From IMG/VR virus record IMGVR_UViG_3300031659_000053, positions 1 through 31,011 of that record: DNA of 31,011 nucleotides. One strand, written 5' to 3'. This document shows, piece after piece, positions 2,828-28,756 of this stretch. Position 1 is the first letter of the stretch. The number at the start of each line of letters is the position of its first letter. Below the pieces are notes generated by a model. The model worked only from the letters and a program-made list of their open reading frames with translations. It did not search any database and had not been told where the DNA came from. The position numbers and the translations under genes are program-made. This stretch comes from a virus (lineage: Duplodnaviria > Caudoviricetes).

Positions 2828-4191
2828 TGGCGTCTAAACCATCACAGTCGCAACAGTTCAAGATAACTGAAGCATCTATTACGGCTGACCGTTTCGGTGG
2901 TTTTGCTGCAAACTCATTCGACATTAGAACTTCTGTTGCGGAATTCAATGTCTTCGAAACTCTGGATAAACCCTACCTAACAGGTCAGGTTGTTATACTA
3001 GATGACAAAGCATTGTTTGATAAGATTAACTTTCAGGGAACCGAAAGGTTTCGAATAAAGATGTCTTCTGTAGACAATGATTTGGATACAGTATTTGAAC
3101 GCACCTTTGCCATGACAGGAATCGAACGTTCGGTTAAGTCTAATGACAACGGAAAATCAAGTGTCTATGTATTCACACTATTGGATGAACACGCATTTTT
3201 ATCTAGTCTGAAGAAGATTAGTAAATCTTTTAATGGAAGGATTGATGAGGTTCTAATTAAGTTGTTGGCTACAGAGATGAATCTTGATATAGACTTGTCA
3301 TACTTATTTCTACCCAATGGAGTAAGGTCGCTTCCGTTACAAAGTGATATGAAAGGAATCATTCCTAACCTATCACCAATCGAGGCGGTTAACTGGTTGA
3401 CCAAACGTGCGACTACGGTTACAGGTTCTCCATTCTTTACCTATGCGTCAATGCACGACAACAATCTACGTCTGGGTAATCTGGACTCCATGTTATCACA
3501 AAAAGCGTTTAACAAAGAGTTACCATACACATTCAATCCCGCAAACGTATCGAACGCAGAATCACAAACCGAATTTGAAAAGACCTTTACAATTAAGGCA
3601 ATTAAGACATCAAAGATGGCCAACACACTGAATCTTATTAGACAGGGTGCAGTCGGAGCAACATACCAGAACACAAACTTAAACACTGGACAGGTATTTA
3701 AGACTCATCACACTATAAGGAATGTCCTAGATAGACTACAGAGTGATAGTATTATAGGTGCCAATCAGGGTGTGTTTGACCGAGAATTCAAAGTAGACGG
3801 TATTAAGGTAGATGAGTATAACTCTCATGTATACCATACAGTCACTTCTACGGGTACTTACGGTAGACATAAAAGTTATCACGATGAACATGACGGAACT
3901 AAGTTTAAAAAGAAACTTGAGAGTCGTGCAATACTAAATCATCTGTACAAGAATATGTTAAATATTGTGGTAGAGGGTGCGGGTTTTATTGTATCGAAAG
4001 CAGGGGTCGGTGACGTTATCAATCTAAAAGTAGTTAACGATAACGTAGAGTCATCGAACGCAGCAACCGAAGATGACCTAATAGACAAAAACAAATCTGG
4101 TGATTTTATCATATATGATACAAGACACACCTTTGCTGGAACCTCACACACAGTGTCAATGAACCTGTGTAAACTGGAGAGACTTCCATAA
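2827..4191 (+). CDS. Putative baseplate hub protein (gp27-like)
   Basis: FNVFETLDKPYLTGQVVILDD...INFQGTERFRI at the N-terminus and SGDFIIYDTRHTF at the C-terminus are typical of contractile-tail hub proteins. It sits between gp53 and gp5. Confidence 0.65.
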   Translation: MASKPSQSQQFKITEASITADRFGGFAANSFDIRTSVAEFNVFETLDKPYLTGQVVILDDKALFDKINFQGTERFRIKMSSVDNDLDTVFERTFAMTGIERSVKSNDNGKSSVYVFTLLDEHAFLSSLKKISKSFNGRIDEVLIKLLATEMNLDIDLSYLFLPNGVRSLPLQSDMKGIIPNLSPIEAVNWLTKRATTVTGSPFFTYASMHDNNLRLGNLDSMLSQKAFNKELPYTFNPANVSNAESQTEFEKTFTIKAIKTSKMANTLNLIRQGAVGATYQNTNLNTGQVFKTHHTIRNVLDRLQSDSIIGANQGVFDREFKVDGIKVDEYNSHVYHTVTSTGTYGRHKSYHDEHDGTKFKKKLESRAILNHLYKNMLNIVVEGAGFIVSKAGVGDVINLKVVNDNVESSNAATEDDLIDKNKSGDFIIYDTRHTFAGTSHTVSMNLCKLERLP

Positions 4192-5048
4192 TGAAACCGA
4201 TTTTATCTGAGTTCTATGGTGACAACACACGATGGTTCATTGCAACTGTTGTTGACGCATCACCCCCATACGGTTTCGAAGGACGGGTAAGAATCCGTGT
4301 ACACGGTCTCCACACACCATCGACTAGACTAATTCCTCAGAGTGACTTACCATGGGCACAATGTGTCGTTCCCACTACAGAAGGTGGTGTATCTGGTATA
4401 GGTAGAATGCCGCAACTACAACCGAGCGCATTGGTATTCGGTATGTTTATGGATGGCATGAATTCCCAGACGCCTGTCGTATTGGGTTCTCTTCCTCATG
4501 TGGAGTTTCCTACTAGTCAACAAATTGGACAGAAGAAGGAAGATATAGGAAACGATAACAAACCAGAGACTTTGTGGGAAAGAACTGTTGAAGTACTACA
4601 ACCAAAAGAAATCGATATACAAAACGAGAATACTGGCAATATCAATAACCTAGTTAAACTACAACGAGAGAAGACCGCAGTAAAATTCTTTTTGAATCTT
4701 GGATATTCTATAAAACAATCCATTGGTCTCACCTCGGCTCTATCTTTTTCTTCGGGAATGCGACCAAGTGTTAATCCCCAGTCAAAAGGATTAGCGAACT
4801 TTACGCAAAATCGTTACAGTGATTTACAGAAGTTTTCACCTAGTTTTGATAGGTTTCTTACCCAACTATCTTTTGTCGCATACGAACTAAACGGTTCACA
4901 GACGGCCGCAAACATTAGATTGTTACAATCAAAACGACTTGAAGAGAAGGGTATATGTCACATCATTGCAAAATACTATCTTGGTGATGTTGAGAAGACT
5001 AAACAAATTGAATTAACAGCTGGTCGTATGATGGATAGGATAGGTTAA
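4191..5048 (+). CDS. gp5 N-terminal OB-fold protein fused to a degenerate phage tail lysozyme-like domain
   Basis: WFIATVVD...GRVRIRVHGLH...DLPWA...P...G.SG.G.......VFGMFMDG..SQ.PVVLG matches the Gp5 OB fold. The C-terminal AVKFFLNLGYSIKQSIGLTSALSFSSGM.P...GLANFT..R...L..F....TQLSFVAYEL resembles Phage_lysozyme2. Confidence 0.8.
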   Translation: MKPILSEFYGDNTRWFIATVVDASPPYGFEGRVRIRVHGLHTPSTRLIPQSDLPWAQCVVPTTEGGVSGIGRMPQLQPSALVFGMFMDGMNSQTPVVLGSLPHVEFPTSQQIGQKKEDIGNDNKPETLWERTVEVLQPKEIDIQNENTGNINNLVKLQREKTAVKFFLNLGYSIKQSIGLTSALSFSSGMRPSVNPQSKGLANFTQNRYSDLQKFSPSFDRFLTQLSFVAYELNGSQTAANIRLLQSKRLEEKGICHIIAKYYLGDVEKTKQIELTAGRMMDRIG

Positions 5049-6973
5049 TGGCAGAGTTAAAGAAAGCAGACTTAAATCTCAACCTTGTTTCTGAAGCAAG
5101 AAAGAAAGAGGCACAGAATGTACTCTTCAAAGGAAAAGCGGATAAGGCAATTGATGAGGTGTTCGTCAAGACATCTACCCTAGTCGGTAAGGTTGACGGA
5201 GAAGTCTTGGGTGGTATTAAAACACTTGGACAGTCTGCTAGTTCAGCTGAAGAAGTTATTACTGCGGGTATCGGTGCATTAACCGACAAGATGCCTAGTC
5301 TCAGTGGAATCAAATTACCGAACATATCACAAACAGATAGTGATGGTATTGTAACGGATATGACATCATTAACAGGTCTTCCTGCTATCAAGTGTAACAA
5401 CCCTAATTCTGGGATGGAGGCTATATCTGATGGCACACCTCAGAGTATTGCGGAGTGTGTCGCATTGGTCGAGGGTGCAACCAAAAAATCACTCGAAGAT
5501 ATCTCTGCATTCACTTCTATCATAGAAGCACAGAACGCCACAGGTCTGGGTAGTAGTGGTGGGTTTTTTGGTAAGATTTCTGCTGCACTATCGGTATTGA
5601 GTATTGGTAACCTATTACCAGAAATAGAGGCACTCGCACCAATCAGAGACTTGAATGATAAGATAGGTGAGTTCCAAGACAAAATCGAATTGGGTATTAA
5701 AGACGCAACAGGAGAACTCTTTGCTGGTCTTGAAGGTGTTGGTGACCAAGTCGTAAACTCTACGCAGATTCAGGGTATGGTAGCTACAATCAATAAGGCA
5801 AAGTCTGAACTAAAATCATTCACAGATTTAAGTGATGTCGTAACTACAGGATTGACCGATAAACTTTCGGTTGTTAAGGACTTCGTTGATGATGTTGATA
5901 ACTTTGTTGACGAGTTCGATGGAAGGGTTAGTGAAGGACTAGGTGGTGTTTTACAGAATTTAGGAGAAGGACTGACGGGTGCTGCTAATAATTTCATTAA
6001 CAATTTAGTGCCAGGCGGGGTCTCTGCATCCGAAACAGAACGAAAGGCAATACTGAAACAGTTCTCCTTGGGAGATGACACAGAGAAAGCAGCTGCAGTA
6101 AAGACACTTGTTACCAAATCAAATACAGTTTCCGCTGCAATGAAACAGGTATTCGAGGATGTGAAACCACAACCAACTGCATCCGATTTAAATAACGCTA
6201 TTACAGATGAAGCTAGAAGACGAGGTATCCCAGAAAAAGAAATCAGTGAAGCTTCCGAAGTACTTGCGACCATCGATAGTAAGATGAAAAAACTAGACAC
6301 TACAATCAGTGGTACAGTTGTTGTTGATGCTGGTATATTTGACGAAGCAATACCTATTGATGAGAACAACCAGAAATGGAGTGGTCGAAATAGTCCTGAA
6401 GATACATTTACCTATGTCGCATCTGTCGAAGAACTTGATGCTGAGTTTGCAACAGTCAAGAGAGAAGTGACCGAGGTTATCGTTCACGCATCCGAAACAT
6501 ATACGAACAAAGACATTGGTGCAATTGAAATAAACAACCTACAGATTGAACTGGGTCATGACGGTATTGGTTACCACTATGTCATTAGAAGAGATGGTAG
6601 ACTACAACGTGCTCGTCCAGTGAGTCGTATCGGTGACCACGCTGTGGTAAATGGACACGACACTTTCTCTATAGGTATCGTTTTAGTAGGTGGTCTAAAT
6701 ATATCTGCGGGTGATGACAATCCTACAGATTACAAATCTGCACAGTCGTTTACTCGTCAACAGTACACGACTCTTGAGAAGTTCTTGAGAAGTTTCTACA
6801 GGAAATATCCTGGCGGTCAGGTGTTCGGTCATAATGATGTAGATGAGAATGAACTTGACCCATACTTTGATGTGTCAGATTATGTTGAATCGGTATTCAG
6901 AAAAGAAAACAAACTGATAGAACCGTCAACAAAAGGGCCCTTGAGTCCAGCGGAGATTAATAGTGACAACTAA
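5048..6973 (+). CDS. Baseplate-associated protein: long helical N-terminus plus C-terminal N-acetylmuramoyl-L-alanine amidase (T7-lysozyme/Amidase_2 type)
   Basis: VIVHASET...IGYHYVIRRDG..QRARP....GDHA....SIGIVLVGG...FT..QY..L......YP...VFGHND.....DPYFDV aligns by eye to T7 lysozyme. Confidence 0.85.
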   Translation: MAELKKADLNLNLVSEARKKEAQNVLFKGKADKAIDEVFVKTSTLVGKVDGEVLGGIKTLGQSASSAEEVITAGIGALTDKMPSLSGIKLPNISQTDSDGIVTDMTSLTGLPAIKCNNPNSGMEAISDGTPQSIAECVALVEGATKKSLEDISAFTSIIEAQNATGLGSSGGFFGKISAALSVLSIGNLLPEIEALAPIRDLNDKIGEFQDKIELGIKDATGELFAGLEGVGDQVVNSTQIQGMVATINKAKSELKSFTDLSDVVTTGLTDKLSVVKDFVDDVDNFVDEFDGRVSEGLGGVLQNLGEGLTGAANNFINNLVPGGVSASETERKAILKQFSLGDDTEKAAAVKTLVTKSNTVSAAMKQVFEDVKPQPTASDLNNAITDEARRRGIPEKEISEASEVLATIDSKMKKLDTTISGTVVVDAGIFDEAIPIDENNQKWSGRNSPEDTFTYVASVEELDAEFATVKREVTEVIVHASETYTNKDIGAIEINNLQIELGHDGIGYHYVIRRDGRLQRARPVSRIGDHAVVNGHDTFSIGIVLVGGLNISAGDDNPTDYKSAQSFTRQQYTTLEKFLRSFYRKYPGGQVFGHNDVDENELDPYFDVSDYVESVFRKENKLIEPSTKGPLSPAEINSDN

Positions 6974-8465
6974 ACAAGACAATTTTGATATCCGAGTGGA
7001 GAAACTGGGAGTGGGTACAGAGAATACCCTTGGTGTACCTAATGATGGTATGCAAGACCCCACTGGTGAATATCCAAAGAGAGAATATAACTACGGTTCT
7101 TCAATCAACAAAGCTGCTCGTGGACTTAGTGTTAATGAGTTGTATGTTGGGGGTGGTGATGTTGGTGTCTCTCTTAATATAGAAAAACAACGTCCTTCCG
7201 AGTTTCCGTTTAATCAAGTACAAGAGACTCCTTCGGGTCATATTGTCGAATACGATGATACGCCTGGCGGTGAACGTATTCTTATAAAACATCGTACTGG
7301 TGCTGGTGTTGAGATGCGGGCAGATGGCACTCTTGTCATCTCTGCGGTCAATAACAAAGTAGAAGTTACTGGTGGTGACCAGACGGTTATCATTGAAGGT
7401 AACGGTAACCTAGTGTATCAAGGTAATCTCAACCTTAAAGTCACTGGTGACTATAACGTGGACGTAGGTGGAAACTATAACGTCAATGTTGCTGGTAGTC
7501 AAAACGAGTCTATAGAACACAATCATAAGACAACCGTGACAGGTAACTCCGAGTATATTACTAAGAAGACCAAGACAACTAGAACGGTTGGAACAAGCAC
7601 TGACCAAATGTTATCAGACTTCAACCAACACGTCAAGTTTGATATGAAGACTCTTGTTCAAGGTAATGTTCAGGTGTCTTCTGAGGACACTATACTACTC
7701 ACGGGTAAGGAAGCGTTCGCTGCAACGAGTAAGAACACTAACATTACAGGTGCAAAGTTTGTATCAGTAATGGGTCAGAAAGGTGCAATCGGTGGACGAA
7801 TGGTAGACTTCACAGGTAACGCCTTTATGGGTGGTGAAGGTGCGGTTCCATTTAACTCTGGTGCTGCGTTCTACGGAACATTGTTTGGTAAAGCATCTGA
7901 AGCAATTTCGGCCGACCAAGCAGACAAATGTGATTTGGCATTAAGGTCATTCTGGGCAACCAATGCTGGTGCTGCGACCACAGCAGTAACCGCAGGAACC
8001 GCTGCGACAGGTGCTGCAACATTCACCGTCCCAACGGTATTATCAGCTGCGGTTCATGTTCCAGTATTGGTTCAAGAACAGCAATATACCAGTTCTGGTC
8101 AGGGTAATGGCCCAATCAATGGTGAGTTTGTCGTAGGACATTCTACCAATGGTGATTACTCAATTAGAACTGTGGTCATCGATGGTGGTGACATACTAAA
8201 GAATAAAACCCTATTGACCGATGATTATTTTGATGTGTTCGATAAGATACCAACGACCCAAGAGATTCGTTCTGCGTTTAGGAACTCATCTTCTAGAAGT
8301 GTTGTTGGTGGTGTACTTGTTTCGGAAGAAAGACTTAATTCAGAATATAAGACAAAGACTCCTCCTGCCATTGGTAGAACCGTGAAGAAGTCTCCGTCAT
8401 CTAGATTTGGTTTTGAATCGATTGGTAATGCAATTGAAAATAGAGGAAAGAGATTCACAAGATGA
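6963..8465 (+). CDS. gp5 C-terminal beta-helix (tail spike/needle) protein
   Basis: GTG start. DPTGEYP; FPFNQVQETPSGHIVEYDDTPGGERILIKHRTG..VEM..DG, then VxGN/VxGD 8-residue beta-helix repeats characteristic of the gp5 C-terminus. Confidence 0.85.
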   Translation: MTTKQDNFDIRVEKLGVGTENTLGVPNDGMQDPTGEYPKREYNYGSSINKAARGLSVNELYVGGGDVGVSLNIEKQRPSEFPFNQVQETPSGHIVEYDDTPGGERILIKHRTGAGVEMRADGTLVISAVNNKVEVTGGDQTVIIEGNGNLVYQGNLNLKVTGDYNVDVGGNYNVNVAGSQNESIEHNHKTTVTGNSEYITKKTKTTRTVGTSTDQMLSDFNQHVKFDMKTLVQGNVQVSSEDTILLTGKEAFAATSKNTNITGAKFVSVMGQKGAIGGRMVDFTGNAFMGGEGAVPFNSGAAFYGTLFGKASEAISADQADKCDLALRSFWATNAGAATTAVTAGTAATGAATFTVPTVLSAAVHVPVLVQEQQYTSSGQGNGPINGEFVVGHSTNGDYSIRTVVIDGGDILKNKTLLTDDYFDVFDKIPTTQEIRSAFRNSSSRSVVGGVLVSEERLNSEYKTKTPPAIGRTVKKSPSSRFGFESIGNAIENRGKRFTR

Positions 8466-20018: not shown

Positions 20019-20221
20019 TGAGTAAGTATACAATGGTTGATGGAAGTCAAAGTTTTGCAAGGACGCAATCGGGTGCTATAATTAATATAAATAAAGATGA
20101 GATAGAGAGAGCACGTTCAAATAAAATCAAACGAAAGAATAAAGATAAAGAGTTTCGAGAATTAAAGAATGAAGTCGGTGAGATAAAAGAACTCCTCAAC
20201 AAACTAATAGAGAAACTGTAA
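20018..20221 (+). CDS. Small hypothetical protein with C-terminal coiled coil
   Basis: TAATG coupling on both sides. R...SGAIIN and ELKNEVGEIKELLNKL are typical of the small gene that follows this structural protein. Confidence 0.7.
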   Translation: MSKYTMVDGSQSFARTQSGAIININKDEIERARSNKIKRKNKDKEFRELKNEVGEIKELLNKLIEKL

Positions 20222-21726
20222 TGGCAACAACGAAACCGACTATCACGACAATTAACGATACGTTCACTGAACTGGTAACTAATTCCAATACAGTGTCTTT
20301 AGACTTGGGTGCAACAGGTAGACTAAACACGAACCAAGATTCTAGTGCCGTTGCAGCTATTAACGAACTGGAACTAGGTATTCGTGGTACATCCAATAAC
20401 CTAGTCGCAACAGACCTTGCAGACTTTACCGCAAACAACATTGTCTCTGCACTACATGAACTCGATAGTGACCTTCACGGTGCCGGTGGTGGTAACGCAA
20501 AGGCAGACTTAACCACCAATGCAAATGATATTGTATCTGGTGTTAATGAACTTGAATTGGGTATCAGGGGAACTAATAACGGACTGGTTGCAGCTATCCT
20601 ATCAACTACCGCAAATGACCTAGTATTGGCCATTGGTGAACTTGATAGTGACATTGGTGCAAGACCACACACAACTCTTACAACGGGTTCAAAGAACCTC
20701 ACTGCTGCGGTCAATGAACTTGAAGCAGACATATTTAACGCAGAGGGTGGAACTAAAAGAACCCTTGCGTCACTTGGTACAACCGATAAGACTGGTATCG
20801 TTGATGCAATCAATGAACTAGAAACTGCAATCCGTGGTACTACAGCAAACTACACTATTAGTACTTCTAGTAACGATTTAGTGGGTGCGGTCAACGAACT
20901 TGATGCATTGCAAGGTAATGTATCAATGGGTACAAGTGCATCTACCATTACAGGTGCAATTAGAGAACATGACTTAGAGTTAGGTACAATCACTGCCGCT
21001 GCAATGGGTACAACTGCATCTACAGTATCTACTGCGATTGCAGAACTAGAAGTAGAGATTGATACACTTAATACAAAAGTCGAACCCGCCCAATCAATCA
21101 CAACTACTGCAACTACATTATCAGATGCAGTAAATGAACTCGATGGCGAGTTAGGTACAATCACTGCCGCTGCAATGGGTACAACTGCCTCTACGGTATC
21201 AACCGCAATTAAAGAACTAGAAATAGAGATTGATACACTCAATACCTTTGTTGAACCTACACAGTCATTGACCACTACTGCGACAACAATTCCTGATGCA
21301 ATCAACGAACACGATGCAGAGATTGGTTCTGCATCTCTCAATACCTCTGCGACCACACTACGTGGTGCAATCAACGAGTTACATACCGAGGTTGGTTCTG
21401 CAATTGGTAGTACACACAACACTACCACTGGTAATATTGGTGCATCTCTCAACTCCCTAGATAGTGCTGTAGGTAATCTAGCAATACTAAATAGTGATGG
21501 TTCTATCGGAAACAGAACTGACCTCGTAAGAGCGGTCAACTCACTTGCGGATGACATCACACTATTAGATTCGGACAGTACATTACAGAACTCAAGATTG
21601 GGTTCACTAGTAGATTTAAATTCCGCATTTGTTAATGCTGAGAGAAACAACTTTGTTGCTGCCCTAAACGCACTGAGAGCTGATATTCCATTAATCTTTA
21701 ACGAGAATGGAACGCAACTTAATTAA
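20221..21726 (+). CDS. Fibre-like structural protein with repeated T.A..L..A(I/V)NEL segments
   Basis: Many (L/I)V.A(I/V)NEL(E/D) motifs separated by Thr/Gly linkers, consistent with a segmented coiled-coil fibre (fibritin-like position). Confidence 0.65.
   Translation: MATTKPTITTINDTFTELVTNSNTVSLDLGATGRLNTNQDSSAVAAINELELGIRGTSNNLVATDLADFTANNIVSALHELDSDLHGAGGGNAKADLTTNANDIVSGVNELELGIRGTNNGLVAAILSTTANDLVLAIGELDSDIGARPHTTLTTGSKNLTAAVNELEADIFNAEGGTKRTLASLGTTDKTGIVDAINELETAIRGTTANYTISTSSNDLVGAVNELDALQGNVSMGTSASTITGAIREHDLELGTITAAAMGTTASTVSTAIAELEVEIDTLNTKVEPAQSITTTATTLSDAVNELDGELGTITAAAMGTTASTVSTAIKELEIEIDTLNTFVEPTQSLTTTATTIPDAINEHDAEIGSASLNTSATTLRGAINELHTEVGSAIGSTHNTTTGNIGASLNSLDSAVGNLAILNSDGSIGNRTDLVRAVNSLADDITLLDSDSTLQNSRLGSLVDLNSAFVNAERNNFVAALNALRADIPLIFNENGTQLN
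20977..21318 (+). repeat. Intragenic 171-nt (57-aa) tandem duplication
   Basis: gagttaggtacaatcactgccgctgcaatgggtacaactgc is identical at 20977 and 21148. Protein copies are ELGTITAAAMGTTASTVSTAI(A/K)ELE(V/I)EIDTLNT(K/F)VEP.QS.TTTATT..DA.NE. Confidence 0.9.
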
Positions 21727-21737
21727 TCGGAGAGAAC

Positions 21738-24230
21738 ATGACTGTTCTATTAAAACTAAAAGACAGTGCTAGTGCCGATTTTGTTGAGTTTTCCTCTACA
21801 GAAGAGAACTACATTGCGTACCAAGCTGGTCTACAACTTGCATCTGACGACAGTTCTGATGTAGGTTCCCTTGCGTTTGGTATCCACGGCACTCAGAACA
21901 ACATTGGTTCTTTCACAAACACCGCCTATGATTCCGCAGTAGGAACAGGTGGTGATGGTTCGTTCCTAACATTTACCACAACAACAACACCAATCAGACA
22001 GACCCTTGGTACAGTGACTCCTTCGGGAACCAACTATCGTATTCCTGTTACACAAAGAGATAGTGATGGACAAAGAATCATTCAGGAAATGAGTGATGCT
22101 GATGAAGATAGTTTGTTAACAAGAATTGGTTCACGTATCTTCACGTCCGATTACCCCGGCTCATATAAACTCGCAACGTCAACACCATCTGGTGGGTACA
22201 CACTCGCATTATCAGATGTGACAACCGACACCAGAGCTGATGGTGCGTCAGTACAGAAAAACATCTATAGACGAACAAGCATGACAGCACCCACTAAGGT
22301 GTTGCCTTTTGCGATTAAACGTTCTAGCGGTGCAACGGGAACCTATCAGGGTCTTCAGTTGATGACCGATGCACAAGTAAAATACAGTATTGGTACTAGG
22401 TTAAAGAATAAGATTGCGTCTAGTACTAGTGGTGTGGGTACATATAAGGTATTGAGTTCCGCAACAGGAACACCAACCAACGCAGGGTTCACTGGTACTT
22501 GGCAATCAAAGGGAGCTGCGACTGATACTCGTAATGCAATTGTTGATGTAAACTATACAAGAAATCGTGCATCCACTTATGCAAGATTAAGAAACTCTAA
22601 CTATACTGCTGCTTATACTAGGTCAAGAAGTTCTACGTATGCAAGGTCTTCTAATGTTACGAGAACAAGCACATACTCAGCTACGTATACTAAGACCAGA
22701 GTCAGTACTTATTTAATCAGTGGTTTCCTTGGTAACTACACAGGTAACTATTCTAGAACAACGTCAGGAACATTTACAAGAACTTCAATCACGACATCTC
22801 CCTACGCAAGCGCCTTTACTGGTAACTTCTCTGGTAACTATTCTCGTCTATTAGCATATACTGGCAACTATGCTGGTGTGGGTGGAAACTATAATAGAAG
22901 TTCTACAGTAGTTGCTAACTATGCAAGAACTTCAACTAATGTCTTTACTGGTAACTTTACCAGAGACTTGACCTATGTGGGTAACTATAGTTCTGACTTC
23001 CTTGGTGAATACTCAGCTGCGTATCAAAGAGTATCGACCGAAGGTAACTTTTCTCGTAACTTCATCGGTAACTATGGACGTGCGTTTACACGAACTCGTT
23101 CGTCTAGTTATACTAGAAACAGTACCAGAGATTCACAGAGAACTAGTACCAGAGATTCACAGAGAACTATTGCGGGTAACTTTACTGGTGACTTTACTGG
23201 TAACTATGCAAGAAACTTCGCTAGTAACTTTACTAGAACTAGTATAGGTACAATGGGTTATACAACCAACTTTCAAAGGGGTCGTGCAAAGAATAATAAC
23301 CTCGCAATCTATACTGGTAACTTTGTTGGCCAGAATTACTATACTCGTAATCGTGTAACTAGTCAAGGTTCTTTGAGTGGTGTCATCTATTCAGCCCCAG
23401 GCAATACCACAAGTATATATTGGTCAGTACCAATTGATTACTCTGACCAATTCTTTATTTATGACAACGGTTCTAAAAGTCAGCTGTCGATGCAGGCGTT
23501 TGTGACCCCCTCCCAGCCAATGGGCACGATGCCATTGTCTTTTTATGAGAGCATTCTGGAGTATAATGGTAGTACCACGATACCATCATACAAAGTCGTT
23601 CTTGGATGGTTTCAGGATAACAGTGCCTCAGGGCGAGCTTCTTCAGTATTGTTTTTGCAAAGTATCACAGCCATTAAATCCGGCAGTACTGAGTATCGCA
23701 AGGGTAGTTATCGAATGTCCTATTACGGCAGCCCTGTTTATGATATGCGAAAACGAACGATAACTAGTTATACAGGTAACTACGCTGAAACCTTTGTTGG
23801 TAACTACGCTAGAAACTTTGCTAGAGGTTTCACCAGAAACTCTACAAGAAACTCAGCTACAAGTTTTACTGGTAACTTCGCTGGTGACTTTTTAGGTAAC
23901 TTTACTGGTGATTTCACTGGTAACTACGGTAGAAACTTTATTGGTAACTACTCTAGAAATTACACTAGAACTCGTGCGTCTACATACACTGGACTTGCAC
24001 ACTTTTCTCGTAACTTCGCTGGTAACTTCATTGGTAACTACTCTAGAGATTTCTCAACGGATTTCACTGGTAACTACTCAAGAAACTATGCTGGTAACTA
24101 TACGGGAGATTATACTCGTAACTTCACTGGTAACTATTCCAGAACATTTGCTGGCAACTATGCTGGTGCGACAATCGGGTCTGGTAATACAAACATTGAG
24201 ACGTATACTCTCTATGTAAGAACTGCATAA
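21738..24230 (+). CDS. Putative fibre protein A: base domain, branched self-complementary tetrapeptide stems and an inserted tip domain
   Basis: N-terminal ~273 aa and C-terminal TYTLYVRTA are homologous to the next ORF. The middle consists of xGN(Y/F)/xRTR/xRNS units around a 131-aa non-repetitive domain. Confidence 0.75.
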   Translation: MTVLLKLKDSASADFVEFSSTEENYIAYQAGLQLASDDSSDVGSLAFGIHGTQNNIGSFTNTAYDSAVGTGGDGSFLTFTTTTTPIRQTLGTVTPSGTNYRIPVTQRDSDGQRIIQEMSDADEDSLLTRIGSRIFTSDYPGSYKLATSTPSGGYTLALSDVTTDTRADGASVQKNIYRRTSMTAPTKVLPFAIKRSSGATGTYQGLQLMTDAQVKYSIGTRLKNKIASSTSGVGTYKVLSSATGTPTNAGFTGTWQSKGAATDTRNAIVDVNYTRNRASTYARLRNSNYTAAYTRSRSSTYARSSNVTRTSTYSATYTKTRVSTYLISGFLGNYTGNYSRTTSGTFTRTSITTSPYASAFTGNFSGNYSRLLAYTGNYAGVGGNYNRSSTVVANYARTSTNVFTGNFTRDLTYVGNYSSDFLGEYSAAYQRVSTEGNFSRNFIGNYGRAFTRTRSSSYTRNSTRDSQRTSTRDSQRTIAGNFTGDFTGNYARNFASNFTRTSIGTMGYTTNFQRGRAKNNNLAIYTGNFVGQNYYTRNRVTSQGSLSGVIYSAPGNTTSIYWSVPIDYSDQFFIYDNGSKSQLSMQAFVTPSQPMGTMPLSFYESILEYNGSTTIPSYKVVLGWFQDNSASGRASSVLFLQSITAIKSGSTEYRKGSYRMSYYGSPVYDMRKRTITSYTGNYAETFVGNYARNFARGFTRNSTRNSATSFTGNFAGDFLGNFTGDFTGNYGRNFIGNYSRNYTRTRASTYTGLAHFSRNFAGNFIGNYSRDFSTDFTGNYSRNYAGNYTGDYTRNFTGNYSRTFAGNYAGATIGSGNTNIETYTLYVRTA
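22557..24161 (+). repeat. Tetrapeptide (12-nt period) coding repeat region of fibre A
   Basis: Recurrent (act)ggtaac(tat/ttc) and agaac units. An exact 24-nt tandem agtaccagagattcacagagaact x2 lies at 23121..23168. Confidence 0.9.
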
Positions 24231-24241: not shown

Positions 24242-26869
24242 ATGGGAACTACTACACTAAAACTTGAAGGCACTAATGGTGACCTTAAAGAGATAACTAC
24301 TACCGAAGAGAATTACCTCGCCTATCAGGCGGGGTTGCATTTGTCTGCGTTAGATTCTAGTGCCGTAGCGGCACTCACAACAACCAGTACAAACAACACT
24401 TTAATCGGTACATACACAGATACTAGTTTTACCGATGCAGCAGGCACACACGGGTTCAGTGGTGGTAATGTTCCTGTTATACAAACAACAAGTTCGTTCT
24501 ATCAAAAAGAAGGTGTAGCCAACTTTGCAGGAGACTCGGATTCATTTAGATATCCGACAGAGTTTGCTGATAACGGTGGAACACCAGAACTTCATGAATT
24601 AGATTCAGCTGAAGTTAACACACTCACAGACAGACTCTTATCTCGTATTGCGGTGTCAGAATATCCAGGCGTATATCGTCTAGGTTCCTCATCGCCAGGC
24701 GGAACATTCTCTGTATACAAGGCGGGAGTGTTTACCGATAAACTTCGACCTACCGTTAGTGGAACCGCATACAACCTATATGTGAAGTCTTCGATGACAT
24801 CACCAACGGCAATAAGACCCGTTTCAATTAAACGGTCAAGTGGTCTGACGGGTTCTTTCCAAGGCATCAAAGAGATGACCGATGCGGAAATAAGATATAC
24901 CTTTGGTTCAAGAGTCCAGTCCCGTATCATGAATGGTTCGTCTGGTATTGGTACATATCAACTACGTAGTAACATTCAGGGAGCTCCATCTGATAGTGGT
25001 ACATGGGCTGCAAAAGGAACTGCAACCGACACCCGTTATGATTTGGTCAACACAGATTATTCTGCTGCCTATACTAGAAACAGTACCAGAGATTCAACAG
25101 TTAACTCCACACAGAACTTTTCTCGAAGTGTTGATTATGTAGGTAACTACGCAAGAAGTTTCACAGCAAACTATCTCGGTGAGTATGTTGGTGATTTCAC
25201 TGGTGACTACGCTGGTGATTTCACTGGTAACTATTCGAGAAGTTTTCTTGGTGACTACACAGGAAACTATGCAAGAAACTTTGAAGGTAACTACACTGGT
25301 AACTACGCAAGAAACTTCCTTGGTAATTACGTAGGTAACTATGCACGTGCTTACTCAGCTGTTTATTCCAGAACAAGGGTAACAACTTATACGGGTGATT
25401 TCACTGGTAACTATGTAGGTAACTATACTCGTAATTATGCGGCCGCCTATACTAGAAACAGGGTAGCTAACTATGTTGGTGACTTTACAGGTAACTACAC
25501 AGGAAACTATACTCGTAATTATGCGGCAAACTATCAAAGAACTCGTGTAACTACTTACACTGGTAACTTCCTCGGTGACTACACTGGTAACTATGCTCGG
25601 GCATTTAGTGCGAACTATCAGAGAACTTCAACCAGAACTTCAACCAGAACTTCAACTCCATCTTACCTCGGCGACTATGTTGGTAACTTCCTCAGAACAA
25701 GAGCGACTGCATATGCTAGAACTCGTGTAACTACTTACACTGGTAACTACGTAGGTAACTATACTGGTAACTTCGTAGGCAACTATACTGGTAACTTCGT
25801 TGGTAACTATGGCAGAACAAGAGCAACTGCATACGCAAGGACTCGTGCTACCGCATACGCAAGAACTCGTACAGCCACTGGCAACTATGCGAGAACACGT
25901 TCAACCAACTATGCGGGTGGTGGTAAAGGTGGTAACGCTTATAACTACACTGGTAACTTTGTAGGTAACTATGCCAGAAACCTGTACTACGTAGGTAACT
26001 ACACGGGCAACTTTGTAGGAAATTACACGGGTAACTTCGTTGGTAACTATTCCAGAACAAGAGCAACGGCATACAATAGAACAAGAGCAACTGCATACGC
26101 AAGAACTCGTGTTACAAACTATGTTGGTAACTACGTAGGCAACTATACTGGTAACTTCGCAGGCAACTATGGCACTAACTTCCAAAGAACTCGCATAGGT
26201 AGCTTCGTAGGTAACTTTGCTGGTAACTTCCTTGGTGACTACACAGGTAACTACGCACGAAACTTTTCAGCAAACTATCAGAGAACACGTGTTACCAACT
26301 ATGTCGGTAACTTCCTTGGTGACTTCACAGGTAATTATGCCCGTGCATTTAGTGCTGCCTATACTCGAAATAGTGTTGCAACATTTGCTGGTGACTTTAC
26401 AGGTAACTACACAGGTAATTATGCCCGTGCATTTAGTGCTGACTATACTCGAAACTCGTTACAGGACTTTGCTGGCAACTTTGTTGGTGAGTACACTGGT
26501 AACTATTCGAGAAGTTTTACTGCGGATTATCAAAGAACGAGAGTGTCAACATACTCAGCTGTTTATTCCAGAACACGAACATCCTTGTACAGTGCAAACT
26601 ATCAGAGAACTCGTGCATCTACATACACAAGAAATTCTACCAGAAACTCTCTAAGAAACTCTGTTGCAACATTCACTAGAACTAGTGTCGTGGTGCGTTC
26701 GAGTAACTACAGTAGAACACGAACGAGTGTTACAACCTTTACTGGCGACTTTACTGGTAACTTTGTTGGCGACTTTACAGGTAACTATGTGGGTAACTAT
26801 GTGGGTACAACAATTGATTCTGGAACGTCTACAATTAAGACCTACACCCTCTATCAAAGAACAGCATAA
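24242..26869 (+). CDS. Putative fibre protein B: base domain plus a single long self-complementary tetrapeptide hairpin
   Basis: Paralog of the upstream ORF (TEENY.AYQAGL.L; IKRSSG.TG..QG...MTDA...Y..G.R; W..KG.ATDTR; TYTLY.RTA). It carries 70+70 tetrapeptide units around an AGGGKGGNAYNY turn. Confidence 0.75.
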   Translation: MGTTTLKLEGTNGDLKEITTTEENYLAYQAGLHLSALDSSAVAALTTTSTNNTLIGTYTDTSFTDAAGTHGFSGGNVPVIQTTSSFYQKEGVANFAGDSDSFRYPTEFADNGGTPELHELDSAEVNTLTDRLLSRIAVSEYPGVYRLGSSSPGGTFSVYKAGVFTDKLRPTVSGTAYNLYVKSSMTSPTAIRPVSIKRSSGLTGSFQGIKEMTDAEIRYTFGSRVQSRIMNGSSGIGTYQLRSNIQGAPSDSGTWAAKGTATDTRYDLVNTDYSAAYTRNSTRDSTVNSTQNFSRSVDYVGNYARSFTANYLGEYVGDFTGDYAGDFTGNYSRSFLGDYTGNYARNFEGNYTGNYARNFLGNYVGNYARAYSAVYSRTRVTTYTGDFTGNYVGNYTRNYAAAYTRNRVANYVGDFTGNYTGNYTRNYAANYQRTRVTTYTGNFLGDYTGNYARAFSANYQRTSTRTSTRTSTPSYLGDYVGNFLRTRATAYARTRVTTYTGNYVGNYTGNFVGNYTGNFVGNYGRTRATAYARTRATAYARTRTATGNYARTRSTNYAGGGKGGNAYNYTGNFVGNYARNLYYVGNYTGNFVGNYTGNFVGNYSRTRATAYNRTRATAYARTRVTNYVGNYVGNYTGNFAGNYGTNFQRTRIGSFVGNFAGNFLGDYTGNYARNFSANYQRTRVTNYVGNFLGDFTGNYARAFSAAYTRNSVATFAGDFTGNYTGNYARAFSADYTRNSLQDFAGNFVGEYTGNYSRSFTADYQRTRVSTYSAVYSRTRTSLYSANYQRTRASTYTRNSTRNSLRNSVATFTRTSVVVRSSNYSRTRTSVTTFTGDFTGNFVGDFTGNYVGNYVGTTIDSGTSTIKTYTLYQRTA
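25061..26800 (+). repeat. Tetrapeptide (12-nt period) coding repeat region of fibre B
   Basis: Dozens of ggtaacta(c/t), ggtgact and agaactcgt units. A near-exact 12-nt triple agaacttcaacc lies at 25622..25656. Confidence 0.92.
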
Positions 26870-26911: not shown

Positions 26912-27361
26912 ATGGCAAAAAATTGGTTAGATAATGCATTCTGGGAAACCCCCAAAAAACAAATATTGAATGCAATCAGTGAAGATGAAGTTGGAAACAA
27001 ACAGGTTCGTCAAGTTCATAGATTGGACAAGGTCAACGAAGATGGAACAGACAATGAACTGTTCATCGAAGCTGTTGCATTCCTTGGACAAGATAAGATT
27101 GATGAGTCCAGTAAGAAACGATTGGAAAAGAAACAGGGTGAAGCTGAACTTGAGAAACAAAAGAAACTAGAACACGAACGTGCAAAGAAACTAGAAAAAT
27201 TGTTCGAGTATAAACTAGAGACTTTTGAGATTGAAGAGATTAAGGTTTCTAAGAACCGTCTTTTAAAATCTAAGTTAAGACGCTCCAAATCGATTCCTGA
27301 AGTGAATCTCTATGCTATGATGATTGTGAAGGAAACGTTGGATGAAGAAAACACCAAGTAA
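26912..27361 (+). CDS. Hypothetical charged helical protein
   Basis: GGAG RBS upstream (aggagacttaacATG). K/E-rich coiled coil, LF.YKLE.FEIEEIK.SKNR.LKSKLRRSKS. Function not recognisable. Confidence 0.7.
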   Translation: MAKNWLDNAFWETPKKQILNAISEDEVGNKQVRQVHRLDKVNEDGTDNELFIEAVAFLGQDKIDESSKKRLEKKQGEAELEKQKKLEHERAKKLEKLFEYKLETFEIEEIKVSKNRLLKSKLRRSKSIPEVNLYAMMIVKETLDEENTK

Positions 27362-28091
27362 AGGTTTTGTAATTGTTGCATCAAAGAACCAAAACTTCTA
27401 TACATATGCCGTCAATCTAATAGAGTCAATCAGAGACTACTACCCCGAAGCTAAAATCTGTCTCGTCACGGAAGAACATTTCCTTGATGACCGTGCGGAT
27501 GAAGCCGACAAAATTATTCTGTGTGATGACCACTACCGTGCAAAATTGTGGGGTATGGCACAATCTCCGTGGGACATTACAATGTATGTCGATGCTGACA
27601 TGGATTGTGAACACGAGGACATTGCAAAAGTTTGGGATGAGATGAAAGACTATGATATGGTCTTTCACGCATTAACTCCAGAACGTGAGAAATATTACGC
27701 AATTCGTGAATTCGCTTATGGTGGTGGTACTGAGAAGTTCACCCTATGTGGTGGTGTGTGTCTTTATAATAGTGCCAAACCATTGGTACGTGAGTTTATG
27801 GAAGACTGGTTCGAGTTGTACAATAAACAACAAAGAGATATGTGGCGACCAGAAGGTTTTAACAAGGAACAGTTTGACCGTGACCTAAGACATTTTGACC
27901 AGACAACACTTTGGTGGTTGACTGAGAAAGAAGAGAAATACAAAGACTTGAAGATTGGTATCTTCTACGATGACATTCGTTGGAACTACTTTACTCAATA
28001 TGCGTATGAAGGACTTAAATCTATTGATGGTAAACCACCTATCCTGAGACACTACTCTGGCTCTCTCAAGAAAGATGTATTAATAGTATGA
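27342..28091 (+). CDS. GT-A fold glycosyltransferase (GT8-like)
   Basis: KGFVIVAS...Y...AVNLIESIRDY.P...ICLVT; RAKL.....SPWDITMYVDAD (DxD motif); GGVCLY; DQTTLW; RWNY; ILRHY. Confidence 0.8.
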   Translation: MKKTPSKGFVIVASKNQNFYTYAVNLIESIRDYYPEAKICLVTEEHFLDDRADEADKIILCDDHYRAKLWGMAQSPWDITMYVDADMDCEHEDIAKVWDEMKDYDMVFHALTPEREKYYAIREFAYGGGTEKFTLCGGVCLYNSAKPLVREFMEDWFELYNKQQRDMWRPEGFNKEQFDRDLRHFDQTTLWWLTEKEEKYKDLKIGIFYDDIRWNYFTQYAYEGLKSIDGKPPILRHYSGSLKKDVLIV

Positions 28092-28756
28092 AGAATATCC
28101 CGATAAAAAACAAAGAAATCTTAGATGTCTTGAACGAGTTCTTGTGGTATTATGATAATAAGGATTTTATTCAGAAAAACCTACACCTACACGGTAAAGC
28201 AAAGGATAGAGATTTCTATGTTGGTGCAGAGTATCGGGACGAAGTTATCGCAATGGACGAGAAACATGAGGGATTTCCTGACGCTGGACACTCTTATGCA
28301 TTGAAGGCAGACAGATTAGAACATCTTAAAGGTTCTGATTCTAAAGCGGCCGACCTTATCGCACGATACAGTAACTTAAACGAAAAACTTTGTACACTAT
28401 TATCAACACGAAACAATGCATTGACTCAACTGTATCCACCCAATGGGTTCATTTCGTGGCACAACAATGCAAACGCATCCGCATATAACATAATTTTCTC
28501 TTGGTCTGAGACTGGTGAAGGAAACTTCAAGTATGTTGATGGACACACTGGTAATGAAGTTGTCATGCAAGACGTAAAAGGATGGCAGTGTAAAGCGGGA
28601 TATTTTGGTGCATATGGAGAACCTTGGCACAATAGGGTCTATCATGCAGCTGAAACTGACTGTTGGAGAATCACGGTATCATATATATTTGACCGTACCG
28701 ATATGTCGTCTGGTCTACAAGATGACATTCTAGAAGAAATAATGTCGGATTACTAA
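28088..28756 (+). CDS. 2OG-Fe(II) oxygenase-like (double-stranded beta-helix) protein
   Basis: LYPPNGFISWHNN...IIFSWS..GEG.F...VYHAAETDCWRITVSY has the Y..G....WHxD...H......R.T layout, with HxN in place of HxD. Confidence 0.6.
   Translation: MKNIPIKNKEILDVLNEFLWYYDNKDFIQKNLHLHGKAKDRDFYVGAEYRDEVIAMDEKHEGFPDAGHSYALKADRLEHLKGSDSKAADLIARYSNLNEKLCTLLSTRNNALTQLYPPNGFISWHNNANASAYNIIFSWSETGEGNFKYVDGHTGNEVVMQDVKGWQCKAGYFGAYGEPWHNRVYHAAETDCWRITVSYIFDRTDMSSGLQDDILEEIMSDY

Follow-up and report, generated by a model that had tools for sequence, protein, structure and literature searches.

A mirror-complementary repeat protein of a marine T4-like phage and its probable folding into a long beta-hairpin fiber

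We analyzed a 31,011-nucleotide (nt) stretch of viral DNA (IMG/VR record IMGVR_UViG_3300031659_000053, positions 1 to 31,011; here called the window), which comes from a marine phage. PHROG matches identify it as the segment of a T4-like genome that codes for baseplate and tail. Gene B of this window (24242..26869, plus strand, like all parts of B and the adjacent genes described below) encodes a protein of 875 amino acids (aa) consisting of a base domain, an outgoing arm, a turn, a returning arm, and a C-terminal strand. The two arms are mirror complements of each other, and this complementarity is real, far beyond chance, and under selection at the protein level. Judging from the sequence pattern, we consider it quite probable that B is a long antiparallel beta-hairpin fiber formed within a single chain, the two arms making up its ribbon.

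Mirror complementarity of the two arms of B

The base domain (aa 1-273; 24242..25060) contains three internal repeats, each made of a hairpin, a helix, and strands. It is followed by arm 1 (aa 274-557; 25061..25912), composed of 70 tetrapeptides and 2 dipeptides, by a Gly-rich turn (aa 558-569; 25913..25948) with the pairing axis at residue 563, and by arm 2 (aa 570-853; 25949..26800), the mirror complement of arm 1. The C-terminal strand (26801..26869), predicted to complete the base domain, bears a conserved C-terminal motif. A first-pass annotation of the DNA had read these coordinates, the equal arm length of 284 aa, and the turn by hand; a scripted parse of the open reading frame (ORF) bore them out and agreed on 70 tetrapeptides and 30 Gly-units per arm. 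The script also reproduced the earlier tally of 60 Gly/non-Gly, 10 non-Gly/non-Gly, and 0 Gly/Gly unit pairs.

This absence of Gly/Gly among 70 unit pairs compares with 12.9 expected (hypergeometric P = 1.5e-11). Elsewhere, 24 other antiparallel offsets gave 3-17 Gly/Gly pairs, 25 parallel offsets 7-18, and 69 other circular shifts 3-20. None of 100,000 run-preserving shuffles reached zero Gly/Gly at the observed offset, and none of 20,000 did so at the best of 25 offsets. Gly/Gly exclusion is thus peculiar to the antiparallel register that had been claimed. At the residue level, the best register was i + j = 1126, with a mutual information of 1.38 bits (next, 1.18), and it was maintained along both entire arms. 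The two-residue shifts therefore sit opposite each other, as proposed, although the placement of the leftover dipeptides is ambiguous, the scripted parser setting them one or two units away from the earlier hand parse. With a pair matrix from 19 homologues, in which B and L001 (875 aa, the length of B) were left out, B scored 215.5 at 1126 and 45.2 at the next best of 201 registers. The complementarity had been called perfect, which is true of B but not of its relatives (10 Gly/Gly in 3887 pairs from 15 selected orthologues); both these 15, also used for comparing insertions and deletions (indels), and the 19 of the pair matrix were picked from good register scorers, and their counts lean towards pairing.

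Each face of the putative ribbon follows its own pairing code, with position 4 of a unit paired with position 4 of the adjoining unit. On the odd (inner) face of B, the 143 pairs comprise G/R (30), Y/Y (28), F/R (14), A/G (14), G/T (12), F/Y (11), F/S (10), and few others. The even face is dominated by N/T (26), A/N (19), T/V (18), A/T (13), and N/S (12), and N/N occurs once. The suggestion that aromatic side chains pack over cross-strand Gly did not hold, since the direct partner of Gly was Arg (30), Ala (14), or Thr (12) and was aromatic in 1 pair of the scan; aromatics in the arms face aromatics, Arg, or Ser. The Gly rule itself stood as an exclusion of Gly/Gly but was incomplete, being one letter of a larger code accompanied by a second code on the other face. 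When each pair was counted both ways, the 19 selected homologues had 20 G/G against 166 expected and 420 G/R against 184; the corresponding figures were 658 against 207 for Y/Y, 170 against 53 for F/S, 44 against 203 for N/N, and 62 against 13 for D/Q. Tyr and Phe account for 112 of the 292 residues of one face of B, which also carries 62 Arg. The arms contain 62 Arg versus 21 acidic residues, whose number per 48 pairs declines from 6 at the start to 0 near the tip, and the Asn-rich face includes 21 N-X-S/T sites.

Register, indels, and covariation in relatives of B

A protein search gave 499 matches among 7990 scored candidates, a scan of viral contigs found 60 loci with the family, and a profile of the base domain recovered 562 clusters (50% identity, E ≤ 0.001). 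We predicted the register of homologues from their two terminal anchors only and then scanned 61 offsets with a matrix derived from B alone. The predicted register was the best one in 68 of 129 anchored homologues (from 178 distinct sequences, near-duplicates included), the 68 including 16 of 17 close complete B orthologues of 576-1183 aa. A further 115 distant representatives, scored over the first 40 pairs and 28 offsets, included 81 with both anchors, and 29 of these were best at the prediction. Some of the off-register homologues are accounted for by bulges and inserts. Six B-type proteins (826-1183 aa) have the Gly-Gly-Gly-Lys turn, and in all 6 its distance from each of the two anchors is offset by the same amount.

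Paired indels across the arms, one of the expectations raised by the first-pass annotation, were indeed found in homologues: arms aligned separately share shifts at matching distances, with 77-100% of positions agreeing in 11 comparisons. Cutting at the predicted axis equalizes arm lengths by construction, while the places of the indels remain free. Between B and L011, 240 of 245 positions agreed through six successive mirrored shifts, and between L018 and L015 the separately aligned arms agreed at 207 of 208. The covariation that had likewise been anticipated was seen in an alignment made from sequence alone, of whose 19 rows 14 were left once near-duplicates had been dropped; there the signal, after average product correction, was highest at 1126 (0.095), followed by 1124 (0.077) and 1128 (0.052), with other sums at 0.005 ± 0.015. 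A peak at 1126 flanked by 1124 and 1128 is the pattern that antiparallel strands would be expected to leave in such an alignment.

Orthologue tips range from short turns to domains. At L051, a five-residue unit faces a four-residue unit, on either strand, in a bulge-like manner. Two short members (L038 7995-9308 and L039 3148-4491) use another alphabet, with 6-residue repeats outward and 10-residue repeats back, which suggests a second geometry on a B-type base. In the member at L029 4240-7989 and in P0004 and P0005, 120-160 residues are inserted within the base domain. P0003 corresponds to L020 8001-10439 without the distal 266 residues, the cut lying between direct repeats, and represents either a natural deletion or an assembly collapse. 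Only 1 of 185,579 prokaryote genomes had a homologue (L062 10001-10768); it lies on a 70-kb contig of a metagenome-assembled genome labelled Microbacteriaceae and may be a binned phage contig.

Gene B is preceded by its paralogue A (21738..24230; 830 aa), which has the base type and repeat alphabet of B and 34% identity to it but is asymmetric. On sequence grounds, A is likely branched: a basal stem would be followed by a loop of ~107 residues protruding from arm 1, by a second stem, and by a tip domain free of repeats (about aa 545-672), the two stems lying at sums 1081 and 1188. These stems ranked one and two in the family-averaged pairing map, with modest margins. The covariation map of A was dominated by noise from the variable tip and was not used. 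Orthologues of A exchange tip domains freely.

In the short members P0122 and P0193 (420-480 aa), the predicted stems take in 60 of 60 pairs and 79 of 96 pairs, respectively. A 3347-aa member is encoded by phage C48C1 (GenBank OQ984149.1, labelled Kyanoviridae; L061 14980-25023, CDS0201), on which our literature search found no paper. Its stems include one of 359 pairs without Gly/Gly, one of 247 pairs, and weaker basal stems, broken where the returning strand carries globular inserts. When gaps were allowed, 955 of 1069 outgoing residues could be paired, with a low-scoring basal part. A stretch of ~75 residues near aa 2010-2155 of this protein occurs twice in tandem and may be an assembly duplication. 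On balance, though with some reserve, we favor the view that these proteins form a widespread marine phage fiber family with a true protein pairing code, in which single-chain, two-stranded ribbons resembling RNA stem-loops, of ~60 to ~950 pairs, have mirrored indels, bulges of one residue, local palindromes, and looped-out domains, and in which length and payload would be set by complementarity alone.

Predicted structure and competing explanations

AlphaFold output was judged from secondary structure and confidence rather than from contacts. The model of B was confident for aa 1-274 and 851-875, with a predicted local distance difference test (pLDDT) score of 72-97 per 10-residue block in the base domain, where helices were placed at 23-35, 122-139, and 214-229. 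The thirds of the base match each other profile to profile (E values of 9e-5, 9e-6, and 1e-8), and the domain is predicted to be pseudo-threefold. With the 875-aa model as the query, the base matched the MABP/MACPF-associated beta-prisms 8b6v (Z 7.0), 2qp2 (6.6), and 3tow (5.6), with root mean square deviation (rmsd) values of 3.6-3.8 Å over 110-121 residues. These proteins have a threefold beta arrangement like that predicted for the base, but the match has 6-8% identity and covers under half of the base, and a Z below 8 may reflect a common arrangement from which function is unreadable. A second structural search (VIA) returned 3tow and 5nxk only, and Foldseek found no match at E ≤ 0.001 in viral and PDB libraries. 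The top ESM Atlas matches for B (0.78-0.80) were unnamed viral clusters and lie below the level of a finding.

The C-terminal strand was modeled at 848-873 (pLDDT 71-95) beside strand 255-278, and their inner ends sum to 1126. The monomer prediction thus agreed with the proposed hairpin in placing the C-terminal strand in the N-terminal domain at this register, and failed to do so in the arms, which stayed unfolded. The out-and-back antiparallel reading is supported by its unique register, the mirrored indels, the covariation anti-diagonal, and these terminal strands.

A single chain would run outward for ~290 residues, turn at the Gly-rich tip, and return as the second strand of one antiparallel beta-ribbon, and its final 20 residues are predicted to fill out the base domain at the N terminus. 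On the odd-residue face, Gly would lie opposite Arg, Thr, or Ala, in alternation with pairs of the types Tyr/Tyr, Tyr/Phe, Phe/Arg, and Phe/Ser. The volume of side chains filling the groove of a twisted ribbon would then be much alike from one 8-residue step to the next. On the even-residue face, backbone groups left free may be capped by Asn or Asp, which would lie opposite Thr, Ala, Ser, Val, or Gln. With Gly-type and Arg-type blocks following each other aperiodically, all pairs would be satisfied in only one register, which would guard the repetitive chain against slipping. In relatives, globular domains would be suspended at the tip or looped out from one of the two strands. A fiber length of ~95 nm had been put forward, and it stands only as an upper bound (284 × 3.3 Å, or ~94 nm, and less if coiled).

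A number of observations weigh against this reading. AlphaFold leaves aa 275-852 under pLDDT 50, with parts under 35, and draws a low-confidence parallel beta-helix in aa 330-454 (pLDDT about 25-33). The model of P0003 (546 aa, 20 sequences) had a mean pLDDT of 34; its strand ends sum to the predicted 796, at a confidence too low to count. Predicting aa 326-425 of arm 1 in complex with aa 701-800 of arm 2 gave a score of 0.01, with the controls not folded, and speaks neither for nor against the hairpin. Among the homologues, 61 of 129 and 52 of 81 were not best at the predicted single register, and their counts are not independent because they share ancestry. Gly-state switches between orthologues were unsupportive (7 Gly/Gly versus 9.5 expected, at only 5 informative sites), and co-substitution of partners was modest (10 versus 5.5, 9 versus 4.3, and 21 versus 11.8, with shifted controls reaching up to 6, 7, and 19). 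Finally, two runs of low depth yielded contigs that jump over 84 nt in arm 2 (26326-26409) at a 32-nt direct repeat, and in one of these two runs a contig spans the partner stretch in arm 1 without a deletion. In the deep runs, 26326-26409 is at single-copy depth, and the skip is probably a graph collapse rather than a real uncompensated variant.

The 1126 register might instead be used between chains, either by pairing arm 1 with arm 2 of another chain or in a bundle of two or three hairpins, formed by B itself (B2, B3) or by A with B, whose aromatic faces would pack together in the manner of the interwoven gp37 needle. Complementarity and covariation are blind to the difference between intra- and interchain pairs, the Tyr/Phe-rich face might need burial, and most phage fibers are trimers (PMC9603124). 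We nevertheless regard this arrangement as unlikely: relatives of differing length have their turn placed right on the axis, the three base repeats fit a monomer mimicking a trimer, A differs from B in arm length and branching, and the Arg residues on the aromatic face would hinder two such faces from packing closely. That the repeats form a parallel beta-solenoid or beta-roll, with the mirror pattern reflecting two solenoids packed head to tail or being incidental, appears very improbable. The beta-helix drawn by AlphaFold does weakly match solenoid proteins (Z up to 4.0), but its confidence is as low as stated above, no parallel offset excludes Gly/Gly, and the best parallel covariation diagonal reached 0.052 as opposed to 0.095 for the antiparallel one. 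Lengthwise strand pairing agrees with a complementarity that is exact to the residue on both faces and with two-residue shifts that mirror each other.

An origin of the pattern in DNA-level events (an inverted repeat or gene conversion) or in misassembly, without selection on the protein, is largely refuted, and we give it hardly any credence. The arms do share direct DNA repeats of 17-27 nt, and repeats invite assembly errors. However, no long inverted repeat connects the arms (20 short pairs, the longest 28 nt at 75%), and the code joins unlike residues (Gly-Arg, Asn-Thr), which is beyond DNA copying alone. Independent assemblies encoding 576-1183 aa obey the code, as does OQ984149.1. The codon differences between B and L001 are mostly synonymous (62 synonymous, 31 nonsynonymous). 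Three deep runs, from which the window may stem, showed ~2 times the flanking depth at both exact 31-32-nt repeats and single-copy depth in the intervening loops, as fits their copy numbers; this read depth and the equal 875-aa length of L001 support the window assembly.

The hairpin reading can be joined to a route of arm growth. A Gly-type block followed by an Arg-type block is a self-complementary segment, and near-identical segments in direct orientation are centered on pairs 523/603, 499/627, and 439/687 (93, 90, and 83% aa identity over 29 aa; 76-86% for DNA). On-axis windows at least 70% identical made up 2.4%, versus 0.28% overall. Each arm also carries a duplication with an 84-nt period, and the two mirror each other in their distances from the tip (138/166 and 137/165 residues). 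A self-complementary block copied from arm to arm would provide a ready-paired segment, and arms likely lengthen by such copying and by mirrored duplications.

Genomic setting, known systems, and implications

DNA of the window was present in 20 runs, all 20 of them marine metagenomes; the one RNA run contained 5% of the sequence words. PHROG matches in the window include a tube cap, a wedge, a hub/lysozyme, a gp9-like connector, and a tail fiber protein. The gp5-like hub (4191-8465) is spread over three ORFs, namely, an OB-fold part (285 aa), an amidase-domain protein (641 aa), and a beta-helix-like part (500 aa). Seven exact TATAAATA sites (603, 951, 976, 9063, 12362, 20086, and 28777) are found in the window versus 1.7 expected, and a one-mismatch copy lies at 24227, just 5' of gene B; we take TATAAATA to be a T4-type late promoter. 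A scan for sigma-70 promoters and terminators gave chance level only.

The gene order is a 1736-aa DUF4815 protein, presumably VrlC, followed by a 501-aa fiber protein, A, and B. In marine myophage relatives, the genes 3' of the large baseplate protein VrlC are mostly host-recognition tail fibers (PMC7029224). From its position among tail-fiber genes, B is likely a virion fiber. The 501-aa upstream protein (20221..21726) has helical repeats and matches phrog_25848, tail fiber protein (E 3.7e-16). Across loci, the gene upstream of the fiber encodes 121-1101 aa, with a conserved C-terminal helix and hairpin in 30 of 36 distinct tails. The C-terminal hairpin-like motif of the 501-aa protein resembles the hairpin that opens each base repeat of A and B. 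This protein is, by its sequence features, a candidate for the trimeric stalk on which A or B would dock. The threefold base of B might cap such a stalk, probably the 501-aa protein, with the Arg/Tyr-rich ribbon and the variable tip providing reach and a first reversible attachment to the host; we hold this to be about as likely as not. An anionic cell surface would be a suitable target for first attachment by arms in which Arg outnumbers acidic residues and Tyr is exposed.

Three conserved genes follow B (26912..28756; 149 aa, 249 aa, and 222 aa). The 249-aa protein has a DxD motif and is glycosyltransferase-like (PF00535 in 5 of 19 members, best E 0.0019). The 222-aa protein has an invariant His-Asn-Asn ... 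His ... Arg pattern and is a candidate 2OG-Fe(II) oxygenase-like protein, with Asn at the place where that motif usually has an acid. These two genes stand together behind the fiber gene in 35 of 61 loci. A profile search of PDB sequences gave nothing under E 0.09 for the two proteins, and ESM Atlas leads for the downstream proteins (0.87-0.88) fell short of the 0.9 mark. The downstream genes are candidates for a fiber chaperone or modifying enzymes; as a lead only, the 249-aa and 222-aa proteins could be what modifies the fiber on its Asn-rich face.

Pfam had no family for A or B, PHROG gave B one weak match only, of unknown function, and a profile search of PDB sequences gave 0 matches at E ≤ 1 for whole B and none under E 0.33 for its base domain. 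The D10-D11 needle of T4 gp37 is an interwoven homotrimer with a stem of 50 residues each way and a length of 20 nm (PMC9603124 and PMC3004832). As in that needle, the chain of B would run out, turn at a variable tip, and return, leaving both termini basal. Unlike gp37, B has arms of 284 residues, a complementary tetrapeptide code, and a base of threefold repeats, and no similarity of B to the gp37/gp12 collar and needle was found in PDB, PHROG, or Pfam. An iron-binding His-x-His motif runs along the stem of the gp37 needle, whereas the arms of B have no such sites and no histidine occurs among aa 272-855. Because both the sequence and the histidine tests fail, B is not a member of the gp37-needle family.

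The S16 gp38 adhesin (PDB 6F45) is a monomer whose three-helix, pseudo-threefold N-terminal domain caps the trimeric gp37 fiber and carries the distal part; three Trp serve in its docking, and the domain is followed by a beta-helix and a polyglycine sandwich (PMC6851490). With its three repeats and a helix in each, the base of B possibly works in a like way. It differs from gp38 in being mostly beta and about 270 aa long, and B has a distal tetrapeptide hairpin pattern with one short Gly run and no gp38 family match. A fold search gave no match of the base to 6F45, the sole match lying in the low-confidence repeats (Z 3.6, rmsd 7.4). In the Gly-aromatic mortise/tenon motif of beta-barrels, also called aromatic rescue, a side chain fills the groove left by a cross-strand Gly (bioRxiv 10.1101/2020.10.22.346965). 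That motif is isolated and found in barrels, while in B the partner of Gly is Arg, Ala, or Thr, 60 times over, in an aperiodic code and a two-stranded element. Searches of full-text literature, mostly outside subscription journals, turned up no fiber described as having such a code. The self-pairing hairpin design was matched in none of the protein families searched (Pfam, PHROG, PDB).

If the hairpin reading is true, B would contain a free-standing beta-hairpin of ~290 pairs, several times longer than the gp37 stem, and would represent a new kind of fibrous protein, in which a repetitive chain fixes its own register by a few side-chain rules. The family would offer a natural test bed for cross-strand pairing preferences and for how beta-rich repeats avoid slipping and aggregation, as well as a case of compensated protein evolution of the kind known from RNA stems. 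Its rules could also help in the design of monomeric rods for which both the length and the positions of attached domains are set in advance. The finding would also name the likely attachment fiber of a large group of marine T4-like phages, represented by the 562 clusters, whose genes are at present annotated as hypothetical.

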